NCBI GenBank assembly: GCA_964486045.1
Contig: CAZALK010000009.1
Span: forward strand, 64,001-128,000
Source: an uncultured archaeon
GTDB lineage: Archaea; Asgardarchaeota; Lokiarchaeia; Sigyniarchaeales; SOKP01
Direction of reading: 5' to 3'
Length of the DNA: 64,000 nucleotides
Both the position numbers and the translations under genes were made by a program. Shown here in pieces: positions 21,339 through 59,115 of the stretch; the stretch's first letter is position 1, and each line of letters starts with the position of its first letter. Under the pieces are notes generated by a model that ran no database searches, was not told the origin of the DNA, and worked only from the letters and a program-made list of their open reading frames with translations.

Positions 21339-22235
21339 TTATTTCCCTTCTTTTCGAAGTGCATTTTCTTTCATCTGAATAAAAAATTCCCTAGCTTTTA
21401 TCACTTCAGGAGGTTCTTCCAAGGGATTAATAATGCGATTAAGAAATAAAAATCCATTTGGGATCCTTTCTCTAAATGAGACTCCTAAGTGATCAGCTCC
21501 ATAAACATAACGAAATTCATGACAAATATTACGATCAAACAGAGATCTATGTAAAAATTCTGCTCCCCTAAAGAGTCCAAAAAAATCCTCTGTACCAACT
21601 TCAAGATAAATCTTTATTTCAGATCCACGTATTTTTTCAGAGTTTTCTCTAACTATATAGGCAGGATTATTATTATTCCAATAATCTTCATCGATAGGAG
21701 AACCGAATATCTTTTCCATGAAATCCTTTTGACGATAAAATTTATCTACAGATTTTACTTCCTTCCATTCAAATGCAGGTTCAATTCCTGGCTCGAATGA
21801 TACAATAGCCCCAAATTTTTCCGGATACTTAAATCCCAATCTTAGAGAACCTAAACCACCCATAGAAATCCCACCAATGAATAATCTATCCAGATTAGTT
21901 TCAACCCTGTACTCTTTTTGAAGATAAGGTAGGAATTCATGGATTATGAATGATTCCCATTTCTCGGATTCATCTTTATAATCCATGTAAAGAGATCTAT
22001 CACAGCTGGGAGTCACAATCACCATTTCTGGAACAATTTTCTTCTCCCATAAACCCCAAATCATAGGACCTATTGAGTTAAGAAATACATTACTTTTATT
22101 TCCACCGCCATGTAGAAATAACATAAGAGGATATGATTCTTCCGTATTATCATATCCTTTAGGAAACAATACATCATATTCTACAGGAGTAGGGACAAGT
22201 TCAGATTTTATCTTGAAACTTTTGACTTTAAATAT
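21339..22235 (-). CDS. Alpha/beta-hydrolase esterase (S-formylglutathione hydrolase/FrmB-like); probable ATA start at 22235
   Basis: YPLMLFLHG, GISMGG nucleophile elbow, GADH. The frame is open upstream of TTG 22169 (FKVKSFKIKSELVPTPVEYDVL) up to an ATA 6 nt after SD GGTGA. Confidence 0.85.
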   Translation of the reverse strand: MFKVKSFKIKSELVPTPVEYDVLFPKGYDNTEESYPLMLFLHGGGNKSNVFLNSIGPMIWGLWEKKIVPEMVIVTPSCDRSLYMDYKDESEKWESFIIHEFLPYLQKEYRVETNLDRLFIGGISMGGLGSLRLGFKYPEKFGAIVSFEPGIEPAFEWKEVKSVDKFYRQKDFMEKIFGSPIDEDYWNNNNPAYIVRENSEKIRGSEIKIYLEVGTEDFFGLFRGAEFLHRSLFDRNICHEFRYVYGADHLGVSFRERIPNGFLFLNRIINPLEEPPEVIKAREFFIQMKENALRKEGK

Positions 22236-22469
22236 AAGAATTCACCATTTTGAATTTTTATTTATTTATCTATATCTTTACGAGATTTTGTGCTTTTTCT
22301 TTTATTAATTTTTCCTCAAATTTGACATTGTTAGCTATTCTCTTTGCTAAGAAATTAAGGATAATATTGCCTTAGTCACAAAAGCCATAAGTGTATAGGA
22401 TTTAAATTGCTAAAAGTCCAGTTAAAGAGGGAAGAAATTCTTTTTCACATCCGTAATCGGATTTAAATA

Positions 22470-23267
22470 TTATGAAAATATCCGTAGGTTGATATAATCA
22501 TCAGAATTTTTCTTGCGAAGCTCAGTTAGTTCCTTTATATTATACTCTCCAGCAACTACTATGGGAATATAAGGGTCAGCATTCAAAGACTTTAATGAGA
22601 TGGATGTAAGATCTTCGACAGTCATCCAAGCTTCCTTCGGAAACCATTCACGTTTGAATTTACCTTTGGCTATTTGTTCATCGTGCATTTCAGTAAGTGT
22701 TAAACCAGGGAGAAGACTTTGAACCAAAATCCCTTTTTTATACATTTTTTCATGCAGTTTCTCTGAAAAGGACACCAAAGCGCTCTTTGTTGTGTAATAA
22801 GATACACCCGGTTTTCTATCTATAACTCCTGATGAAGAAATATTAATTATAATTCCACGTTTGCTCTGTATCATCAATGGCAAAGCTGCATGGCAAAAAA
22901 CAATTGGTGCGGTAAAATTTACATTGATATAATCAAAATGCTGATTTAATTCGATACCCAAAAATGACCTCCAAATTGCATATCCTGCTGAATTGACCAA
23001 ACATTCAACATCGCCTTTATTTTTTATATAAGATACGACCTTCTCAATATCGGACATTTTAGACAGATCAGCGGTTAACACTGAAGCTTCAATATTATGG
23101 TTTTCCTTTAATTCGGTTGCTAATTTTTCTAACTTATCCTTTCTTCGAGCAACTAATACAACGTTAAATCCTTGTTCGGCTAATTTTTTTGCAAATCCTT
23201 CCCCAATACCAGAACTAGCTCCAGTAATTAAGGCTGTTTTCTTATTATCCCACTCCAATTTATCCAT
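22470..23267 (-). CDS. Short-chain dehydrogenase/reductase
   Basis: ITGASSGIG, LVARR, VNSAG, NISS, YxxxK (YYTTK). Confidence 0.93.
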   Translation of the reverse strand: MDKLEWDNKKTALITGASSGIGEGFAKKLAEQGFNVVLVARRKDKLEKLATELKENHNIEASVLTADLSKMSDIEKVVSYIKNKGDVECLVNSAGYAIWRSFLGIELNQHFDYINVNFTAPIVFCHAALPLMIQSKRGIIINISSSGVIDRKPGVSYYTTKSALVSFSEKLHEKMYKKGILVQSLLPGLTLTEMHDEQIAKGKFKREWFPKEAWMTVEDLTSISLKSLNADPYIPIVVAGEYNIKELTELRKKNSDDYINLRIFS

Positions 23268-23277
23268 CCTATTTCAC

Positions 23278-24240
23278 CTATAGTTTGTAGGTTTTTTCCC
23301 TATGTTTTAAACAGAGATAAGCATAAAATGTAATCCATTTGTTTGCTAAGCTGCTTTTCCCAATTTTCCAATATTTATTATTATGAACCCCATCACATAT
23401 ATATTTTCCTTCTTGCGTTTTGTGCCGTGCGAGAACCTTCCATGCGAAATCCATTCTCGAGTCATTCCCAAATCCCATTATAGCTAAAGGTAGTAATACA
23501 TCTATTAATCCGAATCGCCAATAAAAAGGAAAAATCGTTGATCCTGCATCGGTGTTAACATAAGTTTCCGTATCTGTCGTTTTAAATAATATATTGCGAT
23601 TAAGAAAATATTCAACTATTTTTTTACTGAAGGGTTCATCCCATAATTCTGCCAATTGACCTAAAGCAAATAATACTTTTACAGAACCTCTAACACATGA
23701 TTTAACTGGTCTTCCCTTCTTACGCTTTCCTTCATGGGTGTCACATAAATATCCGTTATCATATCTAACCGAATTTACCATTAAATCAATAGTTTTTTTA
23801 AGGCGAGGATCATCCTTAAATCCAAGAAGCATAAAAGTTCTGATATTCATTCCAAACAAACACGAAAAATGCCTAAAAAAGTCACCATCGGATTGTTGTA
23901 GAGATAGATAACGATTGGCAGCTTTCTCGATTTTGGGCTCTTCTCTTGTCATACCAAGTTCAGCAAGATAACTAAGAATAAAATGTGTCGAATTTTGCCT
24001 ATAATCCACTCCTTTTCCATAAGATTTTTTGGTACTTGGACTAATAACTTCCCAATACCCGTCTGGATGCATTCCCTCTAACATATTCTTTACAGGACGG
24101 TAGGTTGTAATCTGTTTTCTAGTAGATTGAAGTTCTGGATCAGAATCGGAAAACTCTTGAAGTTCTCGCATAGTACGATAACGAATCGAAGGATTTCCCT
24201 CCTCTAACAACCATTCTATAACATTTTGTGGAATGTTCAT
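23278..24240 (-). CDS. Alpha/alpha-toroid protein (prenyltransferase/squalene-cyclase-like repeats)
   Basis: WLLEEGNPSIRY, QW-like repeats (MHPDGYW, LQQSDGDF, DNGY, QEGKY), KWIT near the C-terminus. Confidence 0.65.
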   Translation of the reverse strand: MNIPQNVIEWLLEEGNPSIRYRTMRELQEFSDSDPELQSTRKQITTYRPVKNMLEGMHPDGYWEVISPSTKKSYGKGVDYRQNSTHFILSYLAELGMTREEPKIEKAANRYLSLQQSDGDFFRHFSCLFGMNIRTFMLLGFKDDPRLKKTIDLMVNSVRYDNGYLCDTHEGKRKKGRPVKSCVRGSVKVLFALGQLAELWDEPFSKKIVEYFLNRNILFKTTDTETYVNTDAGSTIFPFYWRFGLIDVLLPLAIMGFGNDSRMDFAWKVLARHKTQEGKYICDGVHNNKYWKIGKSSLANKWITFYAYLCLKHREKTYKL

Positions 24241-24618
24241 AACTTTATAGTCTTATTTTCATCTATTTATTTTATTGTAATAGTTTTCCAACTTCAACGA
24301 GCTCCTGAATCGCTTCTATTTCATAATTTAAGGCCTGTTTGTTAGCGTTGGATCCTTTCCAACGTTACTCGATAGATGACTTTGTAGCATTATCAATATG
24401 ATGGCCGAATAAATCATATAATTCTTGCCATTGCTTGAAAGCATCCTTATACAAATTGTGTATTTTTAGATTAAAAATCTAATAAAATTTATGAATATTT
24501 TTATTGAGATGATATCAATCGAAATATAGAAACTCCTGCGACTCTTCCTATTTAGGTACTAAAAACTCTCCTATAATATTCTTTAGAACTTATGTCCATC
24601 CTGTTAAAATCATTTTTT

Positions 24619-25818
24619 TTAAAATTTTGAATCTATTAATTTCCGATCTTTATCGATGTAATAAACCCAGGCATTTCGAGACATTAAGCAATAATCATCA
24701 GCGCCGAGTTTCTTTAATAGTTCAATCCGCAATTTTCTCGCTTCAATATTTTCTGGATCTGCTTGAATTAAAACATCTAAGATTTCCAATGCTAACTGGG
24801 CTTTATTTTGAGATAATAGTTCTTTTGCCCTTTTTATAATCTTCTCAGGGTCACCTATAAGGTTATTAAGTTCCCGCATGACTTCTTTTTCTGGTCTTGG
24901 TAAGAGGTGGGCAATATTACCATCAAAATAGCCATGATACCAGCGATATACATTAAAAACAAAAAATTCTGTTCTAGAATACAACGGTCTTAAATAAGGT
25001 GATTTTGCAAGGTGGTCTGGAAGTTTAACCTTATGAATCATTTCTGTAATATGGGTTCCTTTATTTATATGTTCAACGACTTGATCGTGAAGTGAATATA
25101 TTGATTCTATGTTTAAGTCCAATATTTTTAGGGCTTTATCTCCCGTATAATAAAAACCAGCGCCATTGCAAAATACATGTTCGGGATTAAGAGCTCTTAC
25201 ATCTTCTAAAATTTTTGCCCAATCTAATGCAAAACGAGTTGGTTTCCATGGATTACCTACATTCGGCAAGCCTGCAATAATAAGATCTCCTATAAACGCA
25301 GCCTTAATTTCAGGAATATATACCCACACCGCATCATCTGTTTCTGCTCGAACAGCATGAAGTTCAAAGGTTTTATCCCCAAGTTTTACTATCATATCTC
25401 CTAAAAATGTTTTCGTGGGATATACAAATTCTGGAGTTCTGACAACTTCTGGAACATTGAATTGTACCGCTGTTATATGCGATCTATGAGGAGCAAGCAT
25501 TTTGTATTTATCTAATCGATCAGGTAAATATTTGCTTGCAATTATTTCCGGATTATCTTTTAAGTAAGCTGCTGCACCACCTACATGATCAGTATGCCCG
25601 TGAGTGTAAATAATGTATTTAATTGTACCATTTATTTGTTTAAAAACTTCCCTTCCTACATTAACTCTTGCTATAGTATCTATTAGAACAACCCCATCTG
25701 TAGTTTCTACCCAAGCACAACCTGCTATTGGTAACCTGGCAGTATAAACATCTTTTATAGGATTAGTAAAACTCGCATTTGGAGCACCTAAAATTCGAGT
25801 ACCTTTAATTTCATTCAT
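24619..25818 (-). CDS. Alkyl-sulfatase (SdsA/BDS1)-like metallo-beta-lactamase-fold protein with dimerisation domain
   Basis: YTHGHTDH, AETDD, IGD, YRWYHGYFDGNIAHLLP. Confidence 0.88.
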   Translation of the reverse strand: MNEIKGTRILGAPNASFTNPIKDVYTARLPIAGCAWVETTDGVVLIDTIARVNVGREVFKQINGTIKYIIYTHGHTDHVGGAAAYLKDNPEIIASKYLPDRLDKYKMLAPHRSHITAVQFNVPEVVRTPEFVYPTKTFLGDMIVKLGDKTFELHAVRAETDDAVWVYIPEIKAAFIGDLIIAGLPNVGNPWKPTRFALDWAKILEDVRALNPEHVFCNGAGFYYTGDKALKILDLNIESIYSLHDQVVEHINKGTHITEMIHKVKLPDHLAKSPYLRPLYSRTEFFVFNVYRWYHGYFDGNIAHLLPRPEKEVMRELNNLIGDPEKIIKRAKELLSQNKAQLALEILDVLIQADPENIEARKLRIELLKKLGADDYCLMSRNAWVYYIDKDRKLIDSKF

Positions 25819-25875
25819 TTTTGATTTTCACTTTTAATTTAATAAAATAAAATTTTTTGTAGTTAAAATTAATTC

Positions 25876-26925
25876 CTACTTGTTAGGATTTTTGTAGATT
25901 TCTTCCCAAACTGATTCAACGGGTAAAGGTTGATAAGGTTTTATTTCAAATTGTTTCTTACTTAGCTCATAAATTCCTCTGTTAAATGGAATGTTAATGT
26001 CGAATGAGTTCGCTAATTTCACAAAATATCCGGTTAACGATTCAAGTTCAGATTGATTTTTCTGTCGATGAATCATATCCTGAGCCATGCTATTAAACCA
26101 TGAATATTTAAAATATTTTTTGAAATTAATGATTGCTGTCGCTTTATCGATGTTTTTACGTAATTCTGTTCTTTCCCAAGAGGGCAATCCCTTTAATTCA
26201 AATTCTTGATACCCTGCAGCTTTTACAACGTTCACACCCTCAAGGTATACATTCATATAAATGGTCCAAAGCTTGAAGATCGCATCATCATCTTTAAGGT
26301 CTGAACTTATTAGCGTAAAAGTAGCATTTGAAAGGTTAACTATTAATTTTGAATGAGTAGCATCTTGAAATTGTTGTGTTGTTATTGTTGGGATTCCAAG
26401 GTTTAAAATTTTTGCAGCTCTCTCTGTAATTTTTGGATTTTCATTTTCAGGAGTTCCAAGTGTAAGGTGTCCTTTACCTCTGGTCCCAAATCTTCCTGGT
26501 TCTTCCCGCCAACCAGATTGGACAACGACAGCATAAACAGTTTTCGTAAAATATTTTGGTAAAATTCTTTGATTCTCAAATCCATTCTGTAATCCAACTA
26601 CAATCGGTGCATCTCCAAATTTTATGGAAATATCCTTAGCAACCTCATCTAAATCATAATTTTTAACGGCGATTACTACGACATCTACATTAGCGAGTTC
26701 ATTTAAATCTTCAATTACTTTAACTGGTATTGTTACTAAATTATCGCTTACTACATTATTAAGAATTAAACCATCCTTTTTAAGCGTTTTGGCATTTTCT
26801 CCACGTGCTAATAAGTAAACATCATCACTTTCTTGTGTTAACCATCCTCCAAGAGTAGCACCTATTCCACCAATCCCATAGATTACCACAGTTAAATCAT
26901 TAATGTTTTTCTCCACTAAATTCAA
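25876..26925 (-). CDS. Ketopantoate reductase (PanE/ApbA) family oxidoreductase
   Basis: YGIGGIG, ARGE, AVKNYD, LQNG, KLIVN, SMAQD, SELESLTG; true start may be ATT 26904. Confidence 0.85.
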   Translation of the reverse strand: MNLVEKNINDLTVVIYGIGGIGATLGGWLTQESDDVYLLARGENAKTLKKDGLILNNVVSDNLVTIPVKVIEDLNELANVDVVVIAVKNYDLDEVAKDISIKFGDAPIVVGLQNGFENQRILPKYFTKTVYAVVVQSGWREEPGRFGTRGKGHLTLGTPENENPKITERAAKILNLGIPTITTQQFQDATHSKLIVNLSNATFTLISSDLKDDDAIFKLWTIYMNVYLEGVNVVKAAGYQEFELKGLPSWERTELRKNIDKATAIINFKKYFKYSWFNSMAQDMIHRQKNQSELESLTGYFVKLANSFDINIPFNRGIYELSKKQFEIKPYQPLPVESVWEEIYKNPNK

Positions 26926-27230
26926 CTCATTTTAGAAATATAATCTCTATCCCATTTTTGATTAAACTTAACTCAAAAACTATAATAATATTTCTTAATT
27001 AAAACATAAAAAAATTTTCGATTTAAAAAATGTGATTAAAAGGAATTGTACAAGAAGGATATTTTAATCTCCATTACGTTATTTTTTTGATTATTAACAA
27101 AAAATTAGTTTAAGTTCCAAATAGGGAGTAAAATATTTACATTGCAAAAAATTCCTTTATCTAAATTTTATTTTTTCTTTTTTCTCATGGATTAACATAA
27201 TTAAAAAAATAAAAGAATAAGTGTGTTAAA

Positions 27231-28388
27231 GTGAAAAATATTGTTGTAATTGGCGTAGGATTGATGGGTACTGGCATTGCTCAAGTTTCACTAATGGCAG
27301 GAAACAATGTAACTCTCGTTGACTTGTCCCAGGAAATTAATGATAAAGCCTATGAAAATATTAAAGGTGGATTAAATAAGCTTGAATCAAAGGGAGTATT
27401 AAATGCCGCAGAAAATATCGCACGGATGAAGACAAATCTAGATATAGTTTCAGCTGTTAAAGATGCTGATATAATAATCGAAGCTGTTATTGAAGATATG
27501 GACGAAAAGAAAACTGTTTTCAAAACATGTGATGAAAATGCACCTTCTCACGCTGTTTTTGCATCAAATACATCTACAATGTCCATTACAGAAATAGCGA
27601 CTGCGACTAATAGAGATGATAAATGCATAGGTATGCATTTTTTCAATCCAGCACCTTTAATGAGGTTAATAGAGGTTATTGCTGGTGAAAAATCTTCAGA
27701 AGAATCCATGGAAATTGGTGTAAAGTTAAGTGAAAGTTTGCCGTGTCTGAGAGGTGAAAGATATATTGCAAAAGTCTTAAAAGACCGTCCAGGGTTTATT
27801 GTAAATAGGCTTAATGCTCCGGGGGGAATCTATATGAATTATCTTCTCGATACGTGTCTAGAAAAAGGAATTCCTTTTGAATCTTTAGATGCTGATTTTG
27901 GAAGCGGTGGACCGATGTCTCCATTAGTTTTGTCTGATTATACTGGAATTGATACTGGGTTTCATGTGCGAAATTATTATGCTGAAACTTTACATGAAGA
28001 CTTTAGACCGGGGAAAGTAGTCACCAAAATGTTTAATGAAGGAAAATTGGGTAGAAAAACAGGACAAGGATTCTATGATTGGTCTAATGGAAGACCAAAG
28101 CCAGATTTCTCTAAAATCGAAAAAGCGGGATTAGTAAATCCCGGGATTGGACTTGCTATCCGTTTAAATGAAGGATGTAGAATCTTAGAAGAAGGAATAG
28201 CTTCAGGTTGGAAAGTAATAGATGATGCTAATATGGCTGGTATGAACTTTCCAGGACCTTTTGAATATGGAATAAAGAATTGGCAAAATCTCGTTAAAGT
28301 GCTCGAAGATTTCGCTAAAAAAATTGGTAGTGAATATCTTAAACCGTGTGAGCTCTTTAAAAGTGGAAAATTTGTTGATATGAAATGA
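27231..28388 (+). CDS. 3-hydroxyacyl-CoA dehydrogenase family protein with duplicated C-terminal domain
   Basis: IGVGLMGTGIA, IIEAVIE, ASNTS, GMHFFNP, PGFIVNR, LGRKTGQGFY. Confidence 0.95.
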   Translation: MKNIVVIGVGLMGTGIAQVSLMAGNNVTLVDLSQEINDKAYENIKGGLNKLESKGVLNAAENIARMKTNLDIVSAVKDADIIIEAVIEDMDEKKTVFKTCDENAPSHAVFASNTSTMSITEIATATNRDDKCIGMHFFNPAPLMRLIEVIAGEKSSEESMEIGVKLSESLPCLRGERYIAKVLKDRPGFIVNRLNAPGGIYMNYLLDTCLEKGIPFESLDADFGSGGPMSPLVLSDYTGIDTGFHVRNYYAETLHEDFRPGKVVTKMFNEGKLGRKTGQGFYDWSNGRPKPDFSKIEKAGLVNPGIGLAIRLNEGCRILEEGIASGWKVIDDANMAGMNFPGPFEYGIKNWQNLVKVLEDFAKKIGSEYLKPCELFKSGKFVDMK

Positions 28389-28532
28389 TTTAAATTTTTT
28401 TTTTCATTTTTAATTGTATTTTTTCTTAAAATCAAGGAAATAAATTCTATTGACACAGAATTTGTAAATTCATAGAAATAAAAAATAACACATTATAGGA
28501 AGTAAAAAAACTAATAATTCATTATAATAATT

Positions 28533-29729: not shown

Positions 29730-29736
29730 AATAAAA

Positions 29737-32454: not shown

Positions 32455-32572
32455 TTAAATTAACTGAATTCTCTTTATCAAGATATAAAATCACAAAGTT
32501 AAGATATTATTGAATTTTTCCAAAAGTATACACACATAAGTGATTTCAAAGAAAAATGCAATTTATTAAGAG

Positions 32573-33622
32573 GTGGTAATCATTAGACCGTTAAACAAAT
32601 TCAAAACATTCAAATATGATGCAGCACCGTTTTTCTTCTTTATTGATGTGTTTCCCGCTGATTATTCAAACAGAAACAAACCAAATTTAATTAACTTGAT
32701 TAACGCAATAAAGACAAATCCAATTATACCATTGCCAATGAGAATTGATAGGGTATTCAATGGTGAAAGATCGATTCTCATCCGACCGAAAGAACCAATA
32801 TCATTTTCGGTTAAAGAAGATTTAACAGCAATCATTAATCCAGCCCCGTTTCTTCGGATGGGATTTGAAAAATTATTATATTTTACTGAAGTTCGTTCTC
32901 GGGAGAAATTTCTATTATCACTTTCTTCTGAAATGGCTTTAAAATGGTGGAAATACACGAGATTTCTTTATGGAAATCTTCCCAGCTTGGAAGAAGATTT
33001 CTCAGCTTTCTTGAGAGCATACTTGCATACTATTGTTCGAGCTAAGATTCTTGAAGAAGATCCTATTAAAGCCGCAAAAAATTATTGTCAGTTAATAGCT
33101 GATGTATGTGAAAAACGAATAGAACAAAATGTTATTCTGGCCGAAGTAAAAGAAAAGCAAGAAAATTTAAAAATGTATAAAATCAAAGAAGTCACCTATT
33201 ATAAAAAATTCAAGAAACAACACCAGACTCAATACCATCCTGAGCTTATTGATATCGAAATTTATGATTTAACTCAAAAAGGATTTTTAAATTTCGAAGG
33301 AGATCGCATAAAAAATATGAAAGAAATGGACACAAAGGTAATAAAATATATCCCTCTTTTAATTTACGATGATTTACTTGAATGTATGCTTCATAATTTA
33401 AAAAGACTTGAAAATGGTGATAACGATATATTAGATCCTTCTCTATTATTTGAAAAGAATATAATCATTACTTATCAATCCAAGGATTTTGAAAAAATAA
33501 ATAAGGATAAATTCACGTGGTGGAGTAGTTTTGAGAATATTGATTTAGATTTAATTGTAAGAACTATTCTAAAAATTGAGGAAGATTTCGCTTCTTCTTT
33601 TGAACTTGAAGTGCTTCGATAA
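32573..33622 (+). CDS. Hypothetical protein upstream of carAB
   Basis: 349-codon ORF with normal composition; the GTG lies inside SD GAGGTG, so ATT 32582 is a candidate start. Confidence 0.8.
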   Translation: MVIIRPLNKFKTFKYDAAPFFFFIDVFPADYSNRNKPNLINLINAIKTNPIIPLPMRIDRVFNGERSILIRPKEPISFSVKEDLTAIINPAPFLRMGFEKLLYFTEVRSREKFLLSLSSEMALKWWKYTRFLYGNLPSLEEDFSAFLRAYLHTIVRAKILEEDPIKAAKNYCQLIADVCEKRIEQNVILAEVKEKQENLKMYKIKEVTYYKKFKKQHQTQYHPELIDIEIYDLTQKGFLNFEGDRIKNMKEMDTKVIKYIPLLIYDDLLECMLHNLKRLENGDNDILDPSLLFEKNIIITYQSKDFEKINKDKFTWWSSFENIDLDLIVRTILKIEEDFASSFELEVLR

Positions 33623-34865: not shown

Positions 34866-34869
34866 TAAA

Positions 34870-38715: not shown

Positions 38716-38945
38716 TTGATAAAACCTTTTCTATATTTTTTAAAATTATAACTTATGTTTCTTAATAGAGTTGTTAATATATTTAAATGTATTATTTTTA
38801 TGGTATTTACAAAATTTTAAATTAACATTGAAGACTTAACTCGCTAGTAATTCTCTCATTAATAAAAATCTTGAAAAATCTTGAATAATATATCACAAAT
38901 TATTAAATATTCAATATCTAAAGATTTAATTTAGGTGTTACATAG

Positions 38946-39227
38946 ATTTACTACCGTGGTTATATCTTAGTTCGATTAAAAATCATCGGAACTCAATGGA
39001 AAGTCACAGAAAAACTAAAGGGTTTAAAATCGAGTAGTCAACAGGAAGATTGGGAAGTAACCTATGCTACACCGATATATGGTGGATGGGATTTAATCGC
39101 CGAATGTAAATTTACCAAACTTGAAGATTTAGATAATATAGTGTCCTATTGTAGGACAGATAAGGAATTATCTCAATGGATAGATGCAACAACTACTTTT
39201 ATCAGCACCAAAAAGAATTATCCATAA
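38946..39227 (+). CDS. Stand-alone Lrp/AsnC ligand-binding (RAM)-like protein, ATT start, absent from the ORF track
   Basis: 93-codon frame YYRGYILVRLK...VTYATPIYGGWDLIAECKFTKLEDLDNIV...IDATTTFIS fits the RAM pattern; SD AGGTG 8 nt upstream; in-frame TAG directly before the ATT. Confidence 0.8.
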   Translation: MYYRGYILVRLKIIGTQWKVTEKLKGLKSSSQQEDWEVTYATPIYGGWDLIAECKFTKLEDLDNIVSYCRTDKELSQWIDATTTFISTKKNYP

Positions 39228-49855: not shown

Positions 49856-50152
49856 AAAAATAAGTAAAAACTCGTTATTGTATAGCAATAATGAATTGTA
49901 ATGATAATTCCAATTAAGAGAATTGAAATAATTCCAACTTGTATTAGGAATCTTACTTTACCGAAATTTTCTGGGATTAGATATATTAACCGATAAATCG
50001 CAAAAGTTTTTATCCATACACAAGGTTAAGGAAGTCAAAACGGAGATAGTGTTAGACCTAATAAACCAAGATCACTCAACTTTTATTCCTGAATAATAAA
50101 AACCTTCTTTAAAAAGTAATAATCTGATAAAACACTTAAAAAATTGGAGCTA

Positions 50153-50377: not shown

Positions 50378-51074
50378 ACAAAATCATTTTTGATTTTTGA
50401 AACCTTAAAATTCAGAAATTCATTCCTTTAATTATTTAATATTCATCTAGTTCAGTTTAAAATGTTTTCCTTTTTCTAGAAATAAAATTAAAATCACTAA
50501 AGCGTGAAAGGGTATTCATAAATTTTGACTTGGCTGGTCGTTGATGATGTGACTCCTTGGAATTTGGATAATTGCAAGAGATTTTTCCTTTAAATAAACT
50601 AAAAACCAAACTATTAAATGGTTTAGAAGTAAAAATACTATTGTAGATAAGATAAAAAACCTATCCATGACTCCTACCAAGCACCCTGGATTTTTGTCTT
50701 TTGGCAGTGTAAGCACTTACACTCTAATTTAATCTTTACCTATATTGTCTTTAACCTTGGTTTTAGGTCTCGCTGGTAGGAGTCGCTCTTAGATATTGTT
50801 ATCCTCAAGATTCTAATTCAAGAGAAAAAGTTTACTATACAAATTGATGAAACTGAGGAACTAATGATAATTACAATTGTTACCATGAAATTCTGATCCT
50901 TTGAATAATTTCCCACAGAACCAGAAATATAATCCCGGGTAATTAAAATAAGTCTCGTTTTCTATACATTGTTTATGTTTTTAATTATATTTTTATGTAA
51001 AATTTACCTAATTTAATTTATTACCAGCGATATAAGGTATTAGATTAATCATTTATAAGTTAGAGCAAAATAAA

Positions 51075-52940
51075 ATGTCAGAGTCAATATCCGGACAAAT
51101 TGAATAAGGTTATATTCTACTCAATGAAGGAAAAATCGACCAAGCTTTCCAAATAGTACTCGAAACAGAAAACCAAGAGAGCTTAACACCTGGTGAAATG
51201 TTACAAAATCAATTACTTAAAGGAACACTTTTACTTTTTCTGGGGAAGTTGGAAGAAGCTATTAAAATAGGAGAGAAAGCCTTCCAGGAGAGTGAGGCTC
51301 TAAACAACCCATGCCAATCAATTGAAGCTATTCTCCTGAAATTTGGAGCCTTATATAACCTTGGTAGATTCGATGAAGCATTGGGAGATATTAATTATAG
51401 TAAAAAATTACTCAAAAGTAATTATAGGTGGACTTCATCTGAATTAGAAAAATGTAAAGCTATGGTTGCTTTCATGAAGGGCTCTATTCATCATCAAAGG
51501 CACGAACTAGATCTTGCATTAAAAAATCTCATGAAAAGTTTAGCTTTATTAGAAAATTCTAAGTTATATTCCTTTATGATTCCGCAGCTGTTAGTTTTCA
51601 TTGGTGACACTTATCATTGGAAAGGGGAAGTGGAAGAAGCTCGCCAATCTCACGAAAGAGCCTTGACACTTTTAAAAGGTACTAGTCCACTCATTAAAAT
51701 AATGATCGCAACTTCTCATTATGGTCTTGGTGTAATGCATCATCAACAGGGTAAACCAGATTTAGCATTAGAAAAATATAAAAAAAGTCTAAATATTTTC
51801 GAAAAGCATTGGATACCTTTTTACGTTGGTGCAGTTTACGATCGCATTATTATAGTTTACCTTGATCAGAACGATTGTGAACAAGCAAGAAATTACTTAA
51901 CTCGATTTCAGCAGTTCAATGAACAAATTAGTAATTTGAATAATAAAATCGTCTATGACACTAATTTCTATGAATTATCACGAGCAAGAATATTAAAGTC
52001 AAGTACTCGAACCCGAGATCGGGCAAAAGCTGAAAAAATTTTAAAAGGTCTAATTAAAAGAGAAATGAATATAAACTCTCCAATAAAATTCTTCTTGCGG
52101 GGGCAAGTTCAATTAGCCTTAGTAGTACTCTGTGAATTATATTTTACAGAGTTACATCTCACAAACGATTTGAGAATTCTTGATGATATTGAACCTCTAA
52201 TTGAAAAATTGACTAAAGAAGCAGAACGATCAAGTTCTAGTTTTCTATTAGCTAATGTTTACTTATTACAAGGTAAAATTGCTTTGCTTCGAATGAATAT
52301 GGGGGAGGCTCGGCGCTATTTAACACAAGCTCAGCATATTGCAGAACCTAAAGGTCTTCAGTTGCTAGCCAAAGCTATATCACGAAATCATGATAAGCTT
52401 TTGGACCAGTTGGATGAATGGGAGAACCTTAAAAAGAAAAAAGCTTCAATATCAGAACGCATGGATTTAGCCCTAGTTGATGAAACAATTGATCAGATAC
52501 AAGGAAGGCGCAATATTGAAGATTTAGAGATCAAGGATGAAGACTCGGTTCTACTAATGATATTAACTGAGGGAGGTTCGTTATTGTTTTCTTATCCTTT
52601 CGCTAAAGAATGGAAAATGGATGAAGATCTCCTTGGAAGTTTCCTGTCTGCATTCACTTCATTTAGTGAGGAATTTTTTTCGCAGGAACTGGACAGAGCT
52701 AAGTTTGGCAAATTCACCGTTCTCATAAAATCTCTCTTCAATTTTACCGTTTGCTACTTATTTAAGGGTCAGTCTTATCTGGCAATAAAAAAACTCGCAA
52801 AGTTCGTTAAGATCATCAGCGAGAATGATTCCGTCATCGAGACCTTCCGGAAATTTCAAAACACTAACCAGTTATTGGAAATCAGCGATTACCCGTTTCT
52901 CAAATCGTTCATCACTGAACTTTTTGTAAAAAATGAGTGA
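51075..52940 (+). pseudogene. TPR protein with C-terminal longin/roadblock-like domain; in-frame TAA at 51105-51107
   Basis: ATG 51075 is in frame with 51198 (MSESISGQIE*GYILLNEGKIDQAF); TPR-like helices; tail LLMILTEGGSLLFSY...LLGSFLSAFTSFSEEFF. Confidence 0.8.
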
Positions 52941-53291
52941 AAAATCAACTTGAATCAATTTGCTCATAGAAAGTAAATCTATTTATGTAATACCAACACT
53001 ATGATAATTCAGATCCTAAATCTTAAATATAAAAGTTGCTGAATATGAGTTAAAAAAGACATAAAGAATCATGAACAGAGATAAAACGCAGGAAAAAGAA
53101 AGAGAACATGCTGAGAATGAGATAAATTTTTATGATATCATGTTAGAAGCTATCAAATTCGGACTGTTGAATTATATTGAATATTATTAAAGAAAAAATT
53201 CCCTGTCAAATTAATAAATACAGAATAGATAGAGAATCTTAAAAATAGCTTTTCTGATAATTTATGTGCCTAAAATTTTAATTCCTTATTT

Positions 53292-53648
53292 TTGACGTTT
53301 TTTATTTATAATAATTTACCAAATCCTACTCATTTGTACCATTTTAAAATTAATTTTGTTCGAATATATGCAGATCATAACTTCATTCCAGAAGGTAAAA
53401 ATGGTCTAGAATTAACTATCAGACCCAGATTTCAAGAAAAGAAGGAACCTTTGAAAGTTATGGTGGATGGGAGATGTCCTTATTGTAATGGTAATAAATA
53501 TAGGAAAATAAATAAAGGTTTAATAGAAATCACAAACCAAGAAACATCAGAAAAATCCTATATCTTCGAGTATTATGAAAATTTGCTATATTGTCAAAAT
53601 CCCGAATGTCGTGAAAAATTTTTGTTAAAAAAGACTTCTGAAAGTTAA
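53292..53648 (+). CDS. Small zinc-ribbon protein (start uncertain, possibly ATG 53460)
   Basis: CPYC ... CQNPEC. Confidence 0.5.
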   Translation: MTFFIYNNLPNPTHLYHFKINFVRIYADHNFIPEGKNGLELTIRPRFQEKKEPLKVMVDGRCPYCNGNKYRKINKGLIEITNQETSEKSYIFEYYENLLYCQNPECREKFLLKKTSES

Positions 53649-53657
53649 AAATGTAGA

Positions 53658-54296
53658 TTGTTGACAGAAGCTCAAAATAATGCCGAGGATCATGGCTTAA
53701 GATTATTATCTCAAAAGATCTCAATAGAACATGATAACTTACTGGGAAAATCAGAAGTTTGGCAAACTCTTAAGAACAATAAGGCCCCAATTTCAGATCG
53801 TATTAAATTGGCTTCCATTGATGGCGTTATTGGCCGATTACAAGGGAGTCGTGCGGTAGATCCTCCTGATATAATTGATGAGCAACCTACACTAATTTTA
53901 ATCATAGCTGAGGGGGGATCACTTTTGTTTTCTCATAAGTTTGTAGAAGAATTTTCATATGAAGAAGATGTAATCAGTGGTTTTTTAACCGCTTTTAGCA
54001 CCTTTAGTGGAGAAATTTTTTCCAAGGGACTCGATAGAGCCAAATTTGGCGAAGATACTATACTAATGGAATCAGTTGGCCAATTTTCTGTTTGCTATCT
54101 ATTTAAAGGGCAAACATATCCAGCAATGCAAAAACTAAGTCAGTTTAAAGGAAAAATTGAAAACTCAACCCCTATATTGCAAACGCTTGAGAAGTTTTAT
54201 AACACAAGCCAAGTTCTTGAATTAAAGGATGATCCTTTACTTAAGTCGTTAATAGATGAGATATTTATTAGGAAAAGCGTTAAATTAAATGTTTAA
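53658..54296 (+). pseudogene. 3' fragment of a second TPR/longin-like paralog
   Basis: Begins mid-helix (LTEAQNNAEDHGLRLL vs LTQAQHIAEPKGLQLL) and aligns with the last ~210 aa of the upstream protein. Confidence 0.8.
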
Positions 54297-54529
54297 ATAA
54301 CTCAAAGAATTCTCTTTTTCTCAATCTTCATTTTATTTAATTTCAAAACTCTTAGGAATTGTCCCTATGCCTATTGAAAAGATTTTCAATTTAAGATTTT
54401 AAGATTTATGAAAAGAATTTATCCCATACTTCTTGTAGGCTGAACTCGATAAATAACCTTTTCACTATTTTTAATTTAATAGGGTAAATATATTTAATAA
54501 ATATGAACAATACCTATTGAGTGAAAAAC

Positions 54530-54835
54530 ATGAAAGTTTTAAGTAAAGAAGAGATATTCAAGCTTCTTAAGCAACATAAAGAAGAATTAAAAAAGTATTT
54601 TGTAAGAAAGATTGGAATTTTTGGCTCCGTTTTGAGAGGAGATAATACTAATGAGAGTGATATCGATTTTATAGTTGAGTTTGAGGTTGGAAAAAAAAAT
54701 TATGATAATTTTATCGAATTGGCCTTTTTATTAGAACGTCTTTTGCAGAGAAAAGTAGAATTACTCACGACTGAAGCTCTCAGTCCTTATATGAAGCCTA
54801 AGATTCTAAAGGAGGCTTATTTTGAATCAATCTAA
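54530..54835 (+). CDS. mntA: Minimal nucleotidyltransferase (MNT) antitoxin
   Basis: IGIFGSVLRGDNTNESDIDFIVEF (GSx10DxD), LERLLQRKVEL. Confidence 0.9.
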   Translation: MKVLSKEEIFKLLKQHKEELKKYFVRKIGIFGSVLRGDNTNESDIDFIVEFEVGKKNYDNFIELAFLLERLLQRKVELLTTEALSPYMKPKILKEAYFESI

Positions 54836-55016
54836 AGATTATATGGACAAAATCAATCACATAATTGATGAGATTACTTATTTATTAACCAATTTAAAAG
54901 GATTAACGCATGATAAGTTCATTAAAGATGAAACGCTAAAGAGAGCATTTGTTAGAAGTTTGGAGATTATTGGAGAAGCCGTAAAAACCATTCCTAAACA
55001 TGTACGTGAACAGTAA
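54822..55016 (+). pseudogene. hepT: Truncated HEPN (DUF86/HepT) toxin
   Basis: DETLKRAFVRSLEIIGEAVK; ends at 64 aa, before the catalytic Rx4-6H motif. Confidence 0.85.
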
Positions 55017-55029
55017 ATAATATATTTAA

Positions 55030-55320
55030 CTATAAATAATACTTTTTAACTTCAGTTATTACTAGATCAATTAAGTCTTTAGTATTAACCGATAAATTCA
55101 TAGAGATTTTTCATAACTCTATGGCGTATTAATTATCGTCATTTTGATAATTTGTGAGTATAGCACCCAAACTGAAAGATAGTAGAAAATCAGGTTTCAG
55201 CTTTAAACATCTTTTAGAAATATCGAGTGTTGAAGATAAAAACATTGGATAATTTTGTCTATATTTGCCTACTTGATTATAAAAATGTTAGAAGTATAAA
55301 ATTTGTTCAATTAAAACCAT
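55030..55320 (-). pseudogene. Possible degraded small gene with three in-frame stops
   Basis: ATG 55320 to TAG 55030 in one frame with protein-like composition (MVLIEQILYF*HFYNQ...NDDN*YAIEL*KISMNL...KKYYL*); no family recognised. Confidence 0.35.
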
Positions 55321-55494
55321 TAATATTAAATACTAGATCTGTAGAAAAAAAAAAGTTTTCACAAATGTGAGATTTATTTAGTTATTTGTTTATTTTTTTT
55401 TGTTTTTTGTCGCTTATGTTTAGCAGATCGCTGATTTTATTAAACAAATATCAATAACTTTATTAGGTACAATGTGTATTTATAATATAAAAAG

Positions 55495-55516
55495 ATATGG
55501 GATCCATTTCCCATAT
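55495..55516. promoter_or_regulatory. Candidate operator: perfect 8-6-8 inverted repeat
   Basis: ATATGGGA-tccatt-TCCCATAT, just downstream of TATA-like TTTATAATAT (~55479). Confidence 0.6.
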
Positions 55517-55591
55517 TATAAAAAAATGAGATAATTAAGCGTAAGAGGAAAAGTAAGGCTATAAAAAATTTTTAAATAGGAGGTTTTAAAA

Positions 55592-55807
55592 ATAACAGTT
55601 CAAGAGTATTTTCGAACATGGGAAGAAATTTGCTTAGAAAAACTAAAAGAAATAGGAAGATCATCAGCCTCAGAATGGGCAAGGGCAATGGGATATGGAG
55701 AAAATCGTAATGGAGTAACAACCGTCATTAAAAGAATTAGAAAAACGATGCCAGAGAAATTGGTAATTTATTATAAACAAAGGCCTAGATTATACGAGGC
55801 TCAATAA
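55592..55807 (+). CDS. Small winged-helix-like DNA-binding protein, ATA start, absent from the ORF track
   Basis: 71 aa: TWEEICLEKLKEIGRSSASEWARAMGYGENRNGVTTVIKRIRK...RPRLYEAQ; SD AGGAGGT 7 nt upstream; in-frame TAG at 55577. Confidence 0.75.
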   Translation: MTVQEYFRTWEEICLEKLKEIGRSSASEWARAMGYGENRNGVTTVIKRIRKTMPEKLVIYYKQRPRLYEAQ

Positions 55808-55831
55808 ATAAGAAAAAGGATGTGAACAAAA

Positions 55832-56332
55832 ATATCATTAAAATGTCATCTTTGCGGAAAAGAGATTTATCATGACAGCAAGATATGTCAAATATGTGAA
55901 GAAACAGCTACCAAAAGTGCATTATCCCACAGTGGAAGAGAAGTCAAGAAGTGGAGATGTGATAACTTTTTAGAATTAAAAAGTTTACCATTTGGATGTA
56001 ATCTAGGTTCAGGAATCGAAATTGGCCCGAAAATGATTAATTGCCCTGAGTGCGGAGAGGAATACTCATATGGAAGAAAAATTAGCCATATTTGCCAGGA
56101 CAATTCAATTGAGTTTGGTAAAATATTCGAATTTGAACACCAAGGCCATAAGTGGAATTGTGATACGGCAATGGCATGCATGGAATTATTAACATCCAAT
56201 CTAGATTCAGTTGAATCATTTGTAGAAAAAATCCCGCGTATTGAAAAACTCGAGACAAACGATCATAAATGGAATGATTTAAAATTGAACATTGAGATAG
56301 ATGTGAAGAAGAACCATCTAATTTATGAATAA
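55832..56332 (+). CDS. Uncharacterised tandem zinc-ribbon protein (KWxC/LxYE family, copy B), ATA start
   Basis: The frame of ORF 56033..56332 is open back to ATA 55832: MSLKCHLCGKEIYHDSKICQICEE...KKWRCD, then MINCPECGEEYSYGRKISHICQD...HKWNCD...LIYE*; SD-like GGATGTGA 6 nt upstream. Confidence 0.82.
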   Translation: MSLKCHLCGKEIYHDSKICQICEETATKSALSHSGREVKKWRCDNFLELKSLPFGCNLGSGIEIGPKMINCPECGEEYSYGRKISHICQDNSIEFGKIFEFEHQGHKWNCDTAMACMELLTSNLDSVESFVEKIPRIEKLETNDHKWNDLKLNIEIDVKKNHLIYE

Positions 56333-56523
56333 TAATTTACAAATTTTTTAATTATTAATTCAATAATAAAAGGATTTAAGTAAAAAAGAGAGAAGTATTA
56401 CATAGATAACTCAAAGTAAATGTGAGTATATTGTAGTAGAGAAGAAAATTTAGTCAAGCAATTAAGATTAAGTTATTTCCTTAGCTTTTTTACGTAAGAT
56501 TTTCAAAAATTTTATAGAATTGA

Positions 56524-57891
56524 TTGATAAAATTAAAGAGGTTTAAAAAAATTCAGCAAGAGATTGTATTATTCCCGGGATGTGTAATTACTTATCGGCT
56601 CCCTTTTATTGAAGTTTCAATAAGAAAGGCTTTCGATTATTTAGGGATCGCATTCACAGAAAATTCAAAGTTTTCCTGTTGTCCTGAACCTAATGGAATC
56701 AAAAACTCGAATAAGTTATTATTTTCCATAGCTGCTGCACGGAATCTTGCTCTTGCTGAGAAGGAGAATAAATCTATTTTAACACCCTGTAATGGGTGTT
56801 TTACAACTTTCAAAAAAATAAAAGGTGAAATTGAGGAGGATCACCACTTCAGGAGGAAAGTTAATGATTATTTAGATAAAATTGATCTTAAAGTTCAGGG
56901 AGATTTAGAAGTTTATCATATGGTCGAATTCTTTTCTAAATTCAGAAGAGAAGCAATTAAGGATAATTTAAATTATACCTTGACTGGTTTAAGAGTTGCT
57001 GTGTTTTATGGTTGTCACTTCCTCAGACCAAGTAATATGGTGCAGATAGATGACCCGCTAGAGCCAACCATATTTGATAATTTAATTGAGGATTTAGGTG
57101 CTCAAAGTATTGATTATGATCTCAAGATGGAGTGTTGTGGGGGAAGCCTTGGGAGAGCAGGGAATCCAGCCCTATCATTAGAGATAATAAATGCGAAATT
57201 AGCCAGCATGAAGGAGAATAAAGTTGATTGCATAGTCGTGTGCTGTCCTCAATGTTTTATTCAGTTTGATCATTTACAACATGACTTAAAAAAAGATGAT
57301 CATAATTACGATATTCCCGTTTTATATTATTCAGAAATTGTTTGTATCGCATTAGGGATTGACATTCGAGAAATTATGAAAAAAAACCACAGAACACAAG
57401 TTGAATCCCTTTTTAACAAATTAGAAATCATCCAAGAGAAAAATAGTGAGATAAGAAAACATTTCGATCTTAATTTCTTACTCAAGTGTTATTCATGTAA
57501 AGCATGTGATGATGACTGTATTATTTCAACTAAGACTGAATTCAAACCGAGTGAAATTGTTGGTAGACTTCTTGAGGGAAAAGTTGAGGATGTAATATCA
57601 GATCCTTCAATTTGGTTGTGCCTTGATTGCTATTTATGTTATGAGCTGTGTCCTATGAGGGTTGGGGTGATTGAAATTTTTTCAATATTACGAAACCTTG
57701 CGACAGAACGAGGTCATACTACCAAGGGATATAAGGGTGAATTTGAATCCTTTTATCAAAAAGGAACTGTGGGTATGTTTTCAAAGTCAGCCCGTAAAAG
57801 AGTGGGCTTAGAATCTACAAAACCAAACGTTGGAGATTTGAAAGAATTATTTAATATTATTGAAAGAGAAAATGTAAAACCAGATTCTTAA
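56524..57891 (+). CDS. Heterodisulfide-reductase-like HdrB-HdrC fusion
   Basis: Two CCG domains (LFPGC, SCCP, PCNGC, YGCH, ECCG, CPQC), then CYSCKACDDDC and CLDCYLCYELCP; likely start ATT 56551. Confidence 0.92.
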   Translation: MIKLKRFKKIQQEIVLFPGCVITYRLPFIEVSIRKAFDYLGIAFTENSKFSCCPEPNGIKNSNKLLFSIAAARNLALAEKENKSILTPCNGCFTTFKKIKGEIEEDHHFRRKVNDYLDKIDLKVQGDLEVYHMVEFFSKFRREAIKDNLNYTLTGLRVAVFYGCHFLRPSNMVQIDDPLEPTIFDNLIEDLGAQSIDYDLKMECCGGSLGRAGNPALSLEIINAKLASMKENKVDCIVVCCPQCFIQFDHLQHDLKKDDHNYDIPVLYYSEIVCIALGIDIREIMKKNHRTQVESLFNKLEIIQEKNSEIRKHFDLNFLLKCYSCKACDDDCIISTKTEFKPSEIVGRLLEGKVEDVISDPSIWLCLDCYLCYELCPMRVGVIEIFSILRNLATERGHTTKGYKGEFESFYQKGTVGMFSKSARKRVGLESTKPNVGDLKELFNIIERENVKPDS

Positions 57892-57909
57892 AAAATAAAA
57901 AGGAGAAAA

Positions 57910-59103
57910 GTGATGAGATGGGAAAATTATACATCCTTACCGGAACAATTTAGGAATCAGAGGGTGTTTGATGGATGTGGAATCTCCGGTTTCATTAATA
58001 TTGATGGCAGCAGAGTTTCAGGGGATAAAGTAATTGATATGTTATGTATTTTAAAAGACAGAGAAAATGGCCTTGGTGCTGGTTTTGCAGGATATGGAAT
58101 TTATCCTGAGTTTAAAGATTATTATGCTTTTCATTTTCTTTTTGACAACGATAATGCTAAATTAAAATCATTAAAATATCTTGAAAAAAATGGCAGAATA
58201 ATAAAATCTGAGGTAATACCTACAAATCTACCATCTGGTATTGATAATCCTCCTATTATCTGGAGAGTATTTTTTGATCCTGAGAATTGCAAAAACCAAG
58301 ATTGCGATGAGAAAATCGTTCAATTAGTTATGGAAATCAATTCAAATATAGAAAATGCCTTTGTAATGTCATCTGGAAAAGATCTGGGTGTGTTTAAAGG
58401 GAATGGCTGGTCATATGAAATAGCTGATTTTTATAAAATTTCAGATTATGACGGATATATGTGGTTAGGACATTCAAGGTTCCCAACAAATACACCTGGA
58501 TGGTGGGGTGGTGCACATCCATTTAATCTGTTAAATTGTTCGGTGGTTCATAATGGGGAGATAACGTCTTATGGAACGAATAAAAGGTATTTAGATTCAT
58601 TTGGATATAAATGTACTCTTTTTACCGATACAGAAGTTATCGCATACTTATTTGATCTCTTATGTCGTAAACATAATATTCCGGTATATCTCGCTGCTAT
58701 TGCTTTAGCACCTCCATTATATAAAGATATTGAAAAATTAGATAAAAAATCTCAAATAATATTTAAAAACATAAGAGCGACTTATAAGAGCGCCATGTTG
58801 AACGGTCCGTTTTCTATTGTTGTTGGCTATTCAAATCCCGTCCCTACAATGATAGGATTGTCGGATAGAAAAAAGTTACGACCCTTAGTGGCGGGAATTT
58901 CTGAAGATAGAAACACAGTTTACATGAGTAGCGAGGAAGCCTCTTTCAAAAGATTGATGCTTAAAGATAGTGATTTTAATTTACAAGATATTTGGCACCC
59001 AAAAAGTGGGACTGCTGTTATAGCCAAAGTTGGGAAAGGATTAATAAGTGATGGACTCGAAATTCCGTTAAAAAAAGAAAAATTTTCTACAGTAGAGGTG
59101 TGA
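57910..59103 (+). CDS. gltB1: Glutamate synthase domain 1 (class II glutamine amidotransferase, GltB1)
   Basis: DGCGISG, RENGLGAG, GHSRFPTNT, HPF, VHNGEI, TDTE, DRKKLRP. Confidence 0.92.
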   Translation: MMRWENYTSLPEQFRNQRVFDGCGISGFINIDGSRVSGDKVIDMLCILKDRENGLGAGFAGYGIYPEFKDYYAFHFLFDNDNAKLKSLKYLEKNGRIIKSEVIPTNLPSGIDNPPIIWRVFFDPENCKNQDCDEKIVQLVMEINSNIENAFVMSSGKDLGVFKGNGWSYEIADFYKISDYDGYMWLGHSRFPTNTPGWWGGAHPFNLLNCSVVHNGEITSYGTNKRYLDSFGYKCTLFTDTEVIAYLFDLLCRKHNIPVYLAAIALAPPLYKDIEKLDKKSQIIFKNIRATYKSAMLNGPFSIVVGYSNPVPTMIGLSDRKKLRPLVAGISEDRNTVYMSSEEASFKRLMLKDSDFNLQDIWHPKSGTAVIAKVGKGLISDGLEIPLKKEKFSTVEV

Positions 59104-59115
59104 AAACTGGCATTA

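Follow-up and report, generated by a model that had tools for sequence, protein, structure and literature searches.

Can a gene of an Asgard archaeon begin at ATT, ATA or CTG? The question is raised by a stretch of 64,000 nucleotides (nt) from an uncultured archaeon of the Lokiarchaeia (Sigyniarchaeales, SOKP01), which corresponds to G000:C9:64001-128000 in an assembly of 5.18 Mb with 31% GC and 45 contigs. We refer to this whole stretch as the window. An earlier note on the window pointed to eight sites at which such a codon stands a few nucleotides behind a Shine-Dalgarno (SD) motif, and proposed that start-codon selection is relaxed in this lineage. Having followed this proposal through the genome and its relatives, we consider it probable, at roughly 0.8, that AUU, AUA and AUC (and rarely CUG or ACG) are real translation start codons in this Lokiarchaeia genus. 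Very probably, a few percent of intact genes, including those for the start-codon proofreading factor aIF1, ribosomal protein eL21 and an actin, begin at ATT, ATA or ATC (together, ATH) just behind a ribosome-binding site. The proposed relaxation is supported by a sequence pattern in which ATH peaks at SD spacing, by the conservation of this pattern among orthologues and its exchange with ATG, and by its presence in essential genes that have no canonical start.

Start codons behind SD motifs across the genome

The 3' end of the 16S rRNA of this genome reads ...GGATCACCTCCTAA; thus, GGAGGTGATC is the true SD complement, and GGTGA, AGGTG, GAGGTG and GGAGGT are all genuine complements of the anti-SD. 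At 2024 confident ATG starts, the frequency of G at positions -14 to -8 is 0.17-0.27 against a background of ~0.10, and an SD of at least 4 bases precedes 26%, and one of at least 5 bases 8%, of these starts (control positions, 0.6-7%, and 3-7% for SDs of at least 4 bases). The enrichment in G and the excess over controls indicate that SD-led initiation is real in this genome and serves a minority of its genes, in agreement with the description of SDs as not prevalent in Lokiarchaea (PMC7531240).

Raw counts of the triplets behind every SD-like k-mer contained almost no ATG peak and were uninformative, because most matches are intragenic. We therefore replaced them with a scan that considers the context of the open reading frame (ORF). 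We define d as the number of nucleotides between the last G of the SD core (GGAGGTG) and the codon. In its strict form, the scan accepted a codon at distance d if the SD was at least 5 bases long, if the codon opened an ORF of at least 80 codons, if an in-frame stop lay no more than 10 codons upstream with no canonical start (ATG, GTG or TTG) between, and if the next 15 codons contained no canonical start. The TGA within GGTGA hands codons at d=1, 4, 7 and so on a free upstream stop; control triplets share this bonus and are still without a peak.

At d=5-9, the strict scan returned 86 ATG, 29 ATT, 27 TTG, 22 ATA, 10 ATC and 8 GTG, compared with 8 AAA, 7 AAT, 9 TTT, 10 TTA and 3 TAT as AT-rich controls. 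Narrowing the spacing to d=7-8 leaves 48 ATG, 17 TTG, 4 GTG, 18 ATT, 18 ATA and 7 ATC, compared with 4 AAA, 5 AAT, 3 TTT, 4 TTA and 1 TAT. The profile is sharp, with ATG found 23 and 25 times at d=7 and d=8, ATT 11 and 7 times, ATA 13 and 5 times, and ATC 3 and 4 times, whereas the controls are flat or depleted: AAA occurs once and three times at d=7 and 8, but 10, 7 and 12 times at d=4, 10 and 13. When ATH is compared with the five AT-rich triplets at d=7-8 versus flanking spacings, the odds ratio is 6.9 (Fisher's test, p=2e-8). The codon profile behind SDs that the earlier note had suggested as a check thus has an ATH peak at d=7-8 that the controls lack, and the ATG genes, which were said to have similar spacing, peak at the same distances.

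Measured as the excess at d=6-8 over d=15-23, SDs of at least 4 bases lead 221 ATG, 62 TTG, 17 GTG and 61 ATH starts, and SDs of at least 5 bases lead 72, 21, 5 and 48, respectively. The ATH share of SD-led starts is ~16% for the former and ~32% for the latter, and a share that rises with SD strength is the expectation if weak codons depend on strong SDs. CTG was rejected as a common start on account of its small genome-wide excess, yet two exact CTG-for-ATG swaps occur among orthologues.

We ran the same comparison on 1.3 Mb of a genome of the same genus (G006; the congeners are referred to as g1) and on 1.2 Mb of a single-contig genome of the sister family (G032; this family, g2, also includes G025). 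In G006, the ATH share is 25% behind SDs of at least 4 bases and 41% behind SDs of at least 5 bases. In G032, which has the same GC content as our genome (31%), the corresponding shares are 3% and 12%, and ATG starts are plentiful. The low share at equal GC content indicates that the scan does not create ATH starts in AT-rich genomes. The habit of starting at ATH is much stronger in this genus than in the sister family.

Essential genes without a canonical start, and orthologue comparisons

Essential genes are among those without a canonical start. The aIF1 gene is the single SUI1 gene of the genome, and its ORF contains no ATG; the first TTG is codon 56 of 108. The start region reads TAA GAG AGT ATT AAA GAC GAC GAC ATA TGT. 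In all 22 congeners (22/22) the ATT stands behind a near-invariant leader, AAGGTTGTGATAA, and in 2 of them a stop lies one codon before it; sister-family genomes have ATA (3 genomes), TTG (3) or GTG (1) as the start. Among the 29 genomes read, the aIF1 start is never ATG. The gene for eL21, also single, has ATA behind AAGGTG (ATC in G006), with the first TTG at codon 89 of 105, and an actin paralogue whose first ATG, at codon 53, falls within the actin fold has ATT behind GAGGTGG. With aIF1, eL21 and actin all lacking a canonical start, pseudogenes are ruled out as a general explanation.

The 5' leader of aIF1 (G000:C1:612768-612800, minus strand) has features of its own. The AAGGTTGTGATAAGAGAGT before the ATT is almost invariant in the 22 congeners, while the DNA further upstream diverges, and the leader holds an out-of-frame mini-ORF of five codons (GTG ATA AGA GAG TAT TAA) with a stop that shares one base with the ATT. 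More than a plain SD, this leader may have a regulatory role.

Comparison with relatives, also suggested as a check, finds ATH and SD kept together or ATH exchanged with ATG or TTG. Among strict SD candidates paired between G000 and G006, ATT in G000 is matched by ATT in five cases, by ATG in one and by TTG in one; an ATA is matched by ATC and an ATC by ATG. Canonical starts are exchanged as well: ATG in G000 is matched by ATG seven times, by TTG three times and by GTG, CTG and ATC once each as itemised, with the non-ATG counterparts elsewhere counted as 6 of 14.

A second test was independent of SDs. We translated 4237 non-shadow ORFs from their upstream stop, aligned them to G006 with tblastn and kept pairs of at least 55% identity. 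A first version was contaminated by shadow ORFs overlapping longer genes; these were removed, and the remainder was filtered on the identity of the extension and on stops in the partner. Of 710 orthologue pairs, 75 have an alignment that begins 8 codons or more before the first ATG, GTG or TTG. A canonical codon is absent there from both genomes in 34 of these pairs, G006 has one in 29, often as an exact swap (ATA/ATG, ATT/ATG, ATC/ATG or CTG/ATG), and in 12 the gene continues upstream in G006, which suggests split or recoded/broken genes. Strong cases, in which the partner is stop-free and the extension has at least 60% identity and nearly always at least 12 codons, number about 28-30, or 4% of pairs. 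This value agrees with the SD-based figures (26% of genes SD-led, 16% of those at ATH), and as a rough estimate the genome would hold on the order of 100-150 genes started at ATH.

Two sets of ORFs met in these comparisons stand apart. At ORF indices 857, 929 and 2574 the start position reads GTA, TTA and TTT in G000 against GTG, TTG and TTG in G006, and third-position variants of GTG and TTG might be tolerated as starts; the genome-wide excess of TTA and GTA in G000 is about zero. In ORF 2675 (G000:C7, minus strand) and ORF 3922 (G000:C13, minus strand), an in-frame TGA is kept in both G000 and G006 with conserved residues directly after it. ARAGORN calls a tRNA-SeC (tca) in G000, and these TGA positions may be selenocysteine sites rather than gene starts.

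The eight sites of the window and the rival explanations

The arrangement of motif, spacer and codon claimed for the window is present at all eight sites. The genes concerned are as follows (aa, amino acids).

38933..39227, plus strand: gene for a 93-aa small protein; predicted start ATT 38946, SD AGGTG 38933-38937, 8-nt spacer
55578..55807, plus strand: gene for a 71-aa small protein; predicted start ATA 55592, SD AGGAGGT 55578-55584, 7-nt spacer
55818..56332, plus strand: gene for a 166-aa zinc-ribbon protein; probable start ATA 55832, SD-like GGATGTGA 55818-55825, 6-nt spacer
21339..22246, minus strand: esterase-family gene, 298 aa; probable start ATA 22235, SD GGTGA 22242-22246, 6-nt spacer
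56538..57891, plus strand: CCG/4Fe-4S (heterodisulfide-reductase-like) gene, 446 aa; probable start ATT 56551, GAGGT 56538-56542, 8-nt spacer
32570..33622, plus strand: gene of unknown family, 346 aa; possible start ATT 32582 (GAGGTG 32570-32575 plus 6 nt) or GTG 32573 inside the motif
59095..60627, plus strand: gene with Fer4 and glutamate-synthase domains, 506 aa; possible start CTG 59107 (GAGGTG 59095-59100 plus 6 nt) or GTG 59116
25876..26916, minus strand: ketopantoate-reductase-family gene; canonical start GTG 26916

The four cases that had been singled out as strong have an in-frame stop 0-4 codons upstream, and their first ATG, GTG or TTG lies 22 (22235), 65 (38946), 32 (55592) and 67 (55832) codons downstream. 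These four have no canonical start to fall back on; 26904 has one, and 32582, 56551 and 59107 are ambiguous. As judged from sequence, initiation at a near-cognate codon would explain 38946 and 55592 securely, 56551, 22235 and 55832 probably, and 32582 and 59107 possibly; it does not explain 26904.

The best case is 38946, which we regard as a secure prediction of a conserved non-AUG start. A TAG directly precedes the ATT, and the next canonical codon, 65 codons in, is a GTG. All 12 orthologues found in congeners (12/12) have ATT or ATC together with AGGTG at the same spacing, with a stop directly upstream in 5 of the 12 and the surrounding upstream DNA unconserved. Two paralogues within G000 read ATG-TAT-TAT-CGA at the homologous position (protein MYYRGY). 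The predicted ATA start at 55592, where the first ATG is 32 codons in, is well supported: ATA and GGAGGT are both kept in G002 and G004 (87-88% identity), and G018 has ATA behind GGAGG. More distant orthologues (58-60% identity) have ATG one codon later, which indicates that the N-terminus is correctly placed.

The ORF at 55832 has an in-frame TGA 2 codons before the ATA and does not reach an ATG until 67 codons in. Given the use of ATH across the genome, this ATA is probably functional, with a recent loss of the start as a possible alternative. The ATA at 22235 is a probable start. The TGA of its own SD is the in-frame stop, and residues 16-229 of the product match positions 6-207 of Pfam Esterase (PF00756), so a start at the first TTG, 22 codons in (residue 23), would cut the domain. 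ATT is likewise the probable start at 56551. The alternative in G000, TTG 56524, lies 9 codons upstream without an SD and is unconserved, and downstream no canonical codon follows until 123 codons in; G002 (73% identity) keeps ATT and GAGGT, and from its upstream TAA to the ATT there is no canonical codon.

The evidence at 32582 is divided and leans to ATT. In six congeners, ATA, ATT or ATC stands exactly 6 nt behind (G)GTGAT(C); in G005 a TAG separates the GTG from the ATT; and G000 matches a different part of the anti-SD (GAGGTG) than its congeners do (GGTGAT). Together, these observations favor reading the motif as an SD and the ATH as the start. On the other side, 7 of 9 genomes have the motif's GTG in the reading frame, an ATG precedes the position by 2 codons in G015, and G003 reads TTT there. 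At 59107, the claimed CTG does stand 6 nt behind GAGGTG; however, CTG shows little excess genome-wide, and GTG 59116, three codons later, is an alternative, although it lies 15 nt from the SD, a spacing at which ATG starts almost never occur. Either codon is possibly the start. The claim of an ATT start at 26904 did not hold. GTG 26916, 4 codons upstream, is in frame in G018 and G002 and is replaced by ATG in G004, and Pfam ApbA covers residues 10-156 of the product read from this GTG. The GGAG taken as the SD of ATT 26904 was rejected as such, its letters being codons 1-2 of the gene (GTG GAG).

Elsewhere in the window, a further candidate small gene of 71-72 aa occupies positions 14761-14979 (plus strand), with CTG 14761 (GTGA, d=7) or ATT 14764 as its start, a stop 2-3 codons upstream and the next canonical codon 42-43 codons in. 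Just upstream of the flagged ATA genes, positions 53292-55016 (plus strand) hold short same-strand ORFs of 118, 212, 104 and 64 aa. This run may be a broken gene, possibly one of those meant by the "premature stops" of the earlier note.

Could the ATH codons instead be ordinary isoleucine codons near the N-terminus, each with a real canonical start close by and an apparent SD that is partly coding? This is what we find at 26904, with its conserved GTG or ATG 4 codons upstream and GGAG in codons 1-2, and it is possible at 32582 with its in-frame motif GTG (7/9 genomes), at 56551 with a TTG 9 codons upstream and at 59107 with a GTG 3 codons downstream. However, the TAG in G005 and the absence of an upstream canonical codon in G002 speak against it at 32582 and 56551, respectively, and it is impossible at 38946, 55592, 55832, 22235, aIF1, eL21 and actin, where only 0-5 codons, none of them canonical starts, separate the ATH from an in-frame stop upstream; as an account of the whole pattern it is unlikely. 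Less likely again is that start codons were lost by mutation of ATG to ATA, ATT or CTG in genes that are decaying or already silent. The congeners with ATG at 55832 and 59107 fit such losses, as do the 12 of 75 apparently start-less pairs that continue upstream in G006 and suggest that some genes are split or broken. Random loss, however, would not give a peak at a specific spacing; moreover, species whose protein sequences differ by 20-45% share the ATH and its SD, the reading frames of 71-506 codons are uninterrupted, and single-copy aIF1 and eL21 are among the genes concerned. The least probable account is chance, by which some of the ATT and ATA codons, so common in a genome of 31% GC, would follow an SD-like motif at a distance of 5-9 nt where an ORF begins. 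The ATH background is indeed not zero, at ~76 per three spacings against 137 observed for 4-base SDs, and single cases with short motifs (GGAG, GTGA) could be coincidental. Yet the equally common AAA, AAT, TTT, TAT and TTA have no peak (Fisher's p=2e-8), G032 has almost no ATH excess at equal GC content, and SD and codon are conserved together. At the level of the genome, chance is refuted.

Several observations weigh against initiation at ATH codons or soften the evidence for it. G019, G004 and G002 (49-58% identity) carry ATG at exactly the 55832 codon, behind GTGA, and the 59107 position is ATG in the G002 orthologue (89% identity). The earlier note had named ATG in close relatives as the finding that would speak against these starts; it occurs at these two sites, but it has no diagnostic value where intact orthologues exchange ATG and ATH freely. 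For the esterase at 22235, a search for a close orthologue in 40 relatives returned only distant paralogues (at most 26% identity). The SD-independent estimate is noisy, as tblastn alignments run 1-7 codons too far in 246 of 710 pairs, and partner stops occur in 16 of 63 extensions (the 75 pairs minus the 12 that continue upstream). Codon enrichment in the N-terminal zone is modest (ATC 2.7x, ATA 2.3x and ATT 1.6x, but TTT 2.5x), and at the second codon the ATH candidates share the composition of ATG starts only in part; both signals are weak, and we do not lean on them. The aIF1 protein looks ordinary, aligning without gaps to M. jannaschii aIF1 over residues 5-103 of 106, and so is intact and of normal length. 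Finally, the whole case for initiation at ATH is read from nucleotide sequence.

Initiator tRNA, aIF1 and the annotation of Asgard genes

Initiation at AUH codons raises the question of which tRNA reads them. The genome has one initiator tRNA, with A1:U72, three G:C pairs in the anticodon stem and anticodon CAT, and its anticodon arm is identical in G032. The gene lies at ~583,600-583,760 of G000:C1 (plus strand) and has an intron of ~49 nt after position 37. ARAGORN found only 12-31 tRNAs in the genome, some of them implausible; it misses or mis-calls many because of introns, and the initiator was located by pattern. A pattern search for arms of the type GGG-YT-NAT-RA-CCC, itself limited by tRNA introns, found the CAT initiator and no initiator-like tRNA with another anticodon. 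A variant code or a dedicated AUH initiator tRNA was set aside on this result. An altered aIF1 protein was likewise rejected as the cause, given the ungapped alignment to the M. jannaschii protein; its sequence offers no explanation for lower stringency. Inspection of these two components, which had been recommended at the outset, thus points to an aIF1 gene that starts at ATT in 22/22 congeners and to a single CAT initiator.

Based on these observations, we propose how initiation at AUH could proceed. The mRNA motif GGAGGUGA would pair with the 3' end of the 16S rRNA and place the 30S subunit such that the P site lies 6-8 nt behind the last G of GGUG. The single CAU initiator tRNA would then pair with AUH at the first two positions, leaving the third mismatched, and the protein would accordingly carry methionine as its first residue. 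A strong SD would make up for the weak codon, the SD duplex stabilizing a complex that the fidelity system tolerates. Lastly, aIF1, itself probably translated from an AUU start, may settle at a level that still allows AUU initiation, by a feedback like that of infC/IF3 or eIF1. As autoregulation of this kind would have it, the fidelity-factor gene starts at AUU, a codon against which S. solfataricus aIF1 discriminates (PMC4705826). By analogy, we infer an infC-like feedback loop for aIF1. The difference between g1 (aIF1 on ATT, many ATH starts) and g2 (aIF1 on TTG in G025, few ATH starts in G032) is suggestive of a link between the aIF1 start and ATH use, a comparison weakened by its span of two lineages only (two g1 genomes and one g2 genome).

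Near-cognate AUU and AUA starts are known as rarities, from infC, from mitochondria and from the list of table 11. NCBI table 11 gives ATT, ATC, ATA and CTG as alternative starts, with no frequency. Mitochondria use AUN starts (NCBI tables 2 and 5), without SDs and with a modified wobble base in tRNA-Met. They are thus like this genus in that AUA, AUU and AUC initiate alongside AUG, and unlike it in lacking SDs. E. coli infC is closer, with an AUU at normal SD spacing, a normal initiator tRNA and a fidelity-factor gene that is itself on AUU. However, bacterial AUU starts are confined to a handful of genes, whereas here ATH makes up ~16-32% of SD-led starts, and the factor here is of the aIF1/eIF1 type, unrelated in fold to IF3, with an autocontrol that we propose by comparison. 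Eukaryotic eIF1 is a homologous fidelity factor made from a weak start, and eukaryotes use near-cognates for real proteins; unlike this genus, they do so by scanning, with a preference for CUG, GUG and ACG-type codons in Kozak context, whereas here the SD places the ribosome, AUH dominates and CUG is rare. The archaea that have been reviewed share aIF1, a CAU initiator tRNA and SD/anti-SD pairing with this genus, and differ in that the SD-led minority of genes here uses ATH heavily.

In the literature, archaea are described as using AUG, GUG and UUG, and S. solfataricus aIF1 rejects an AUU model mRNA (PMC4705826); reviews list only these three codons as archaeal starts, and not AUU, AUA or AUC (PMC4705826, PMC7531240). 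Bacterial IF3 is autoregulated via the AUU start of infC (Butler et al. 1987, as summarized in PMC4705826), and eIF1 through a poor start context (PMC4705826). A "rare ATT start codon" has been proposed for AtubA, an Asgard tubulin of a Kariarchaeaceae metagenome-assembled genome (MAG) (PMC13394414). As in our cases, the ATT there lies behind a plausible ribosome-binding site, and with it the Asgard protein regains an N-terminal beta-strand that was missing; unlike ours, it concerns one gene, in a methods section and in another Asgard lineage, whereas the use described here is genus-wide and quantified. Apart from this one anecdotal Asgard ATT (PMC13394414), we found no systematic report of AUH starts in archaea or Asgards in the literature searched. 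Thus, near-cognate starts are already known in kind, and their genome- and genus-wide, quantified use in archaea is new within that literature.

Gene finders limited to ATG, GTG and TTG truncate, shift or miss genes that start at ATH. The suspicion that small genes are hidden by such starts is supported by the family of 38946, in which gene calls are also distorted and whose product we searched against 5.8 billion public proteins. Matches are confined to Asgard MAGs, and the calls for this 93-aa protein span 82-101 aa: direct orthologues are called as 82-84 aa (from an inner TTG), 87 aa or 99-101 aa (from the GTG inside the SD), while the ATG-started paralogues are called at 93-94 aa and begin MYYRGY. 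Among these 5.8 billion proteins there is no full-length entry for the G000 copy. Structure predictions, expression constructs and phylogenies built on the affected Asgard protein sets, with actin and aIF1 among them, inherit such errors. On the boldest reading, which is less likely than not, the Asgard proteomes used for studies of eukaryogenesis would be systematically mis-called at their N-termini. A lineage in which AUH makes up 16-32% of SD-led starts and aIF1 itself begins at AUU would also be a natural system for studying how eIF1-type factors set the fidelity of initiation, with a built-in contrast in a sister family of the same GC content and few ATH starts.

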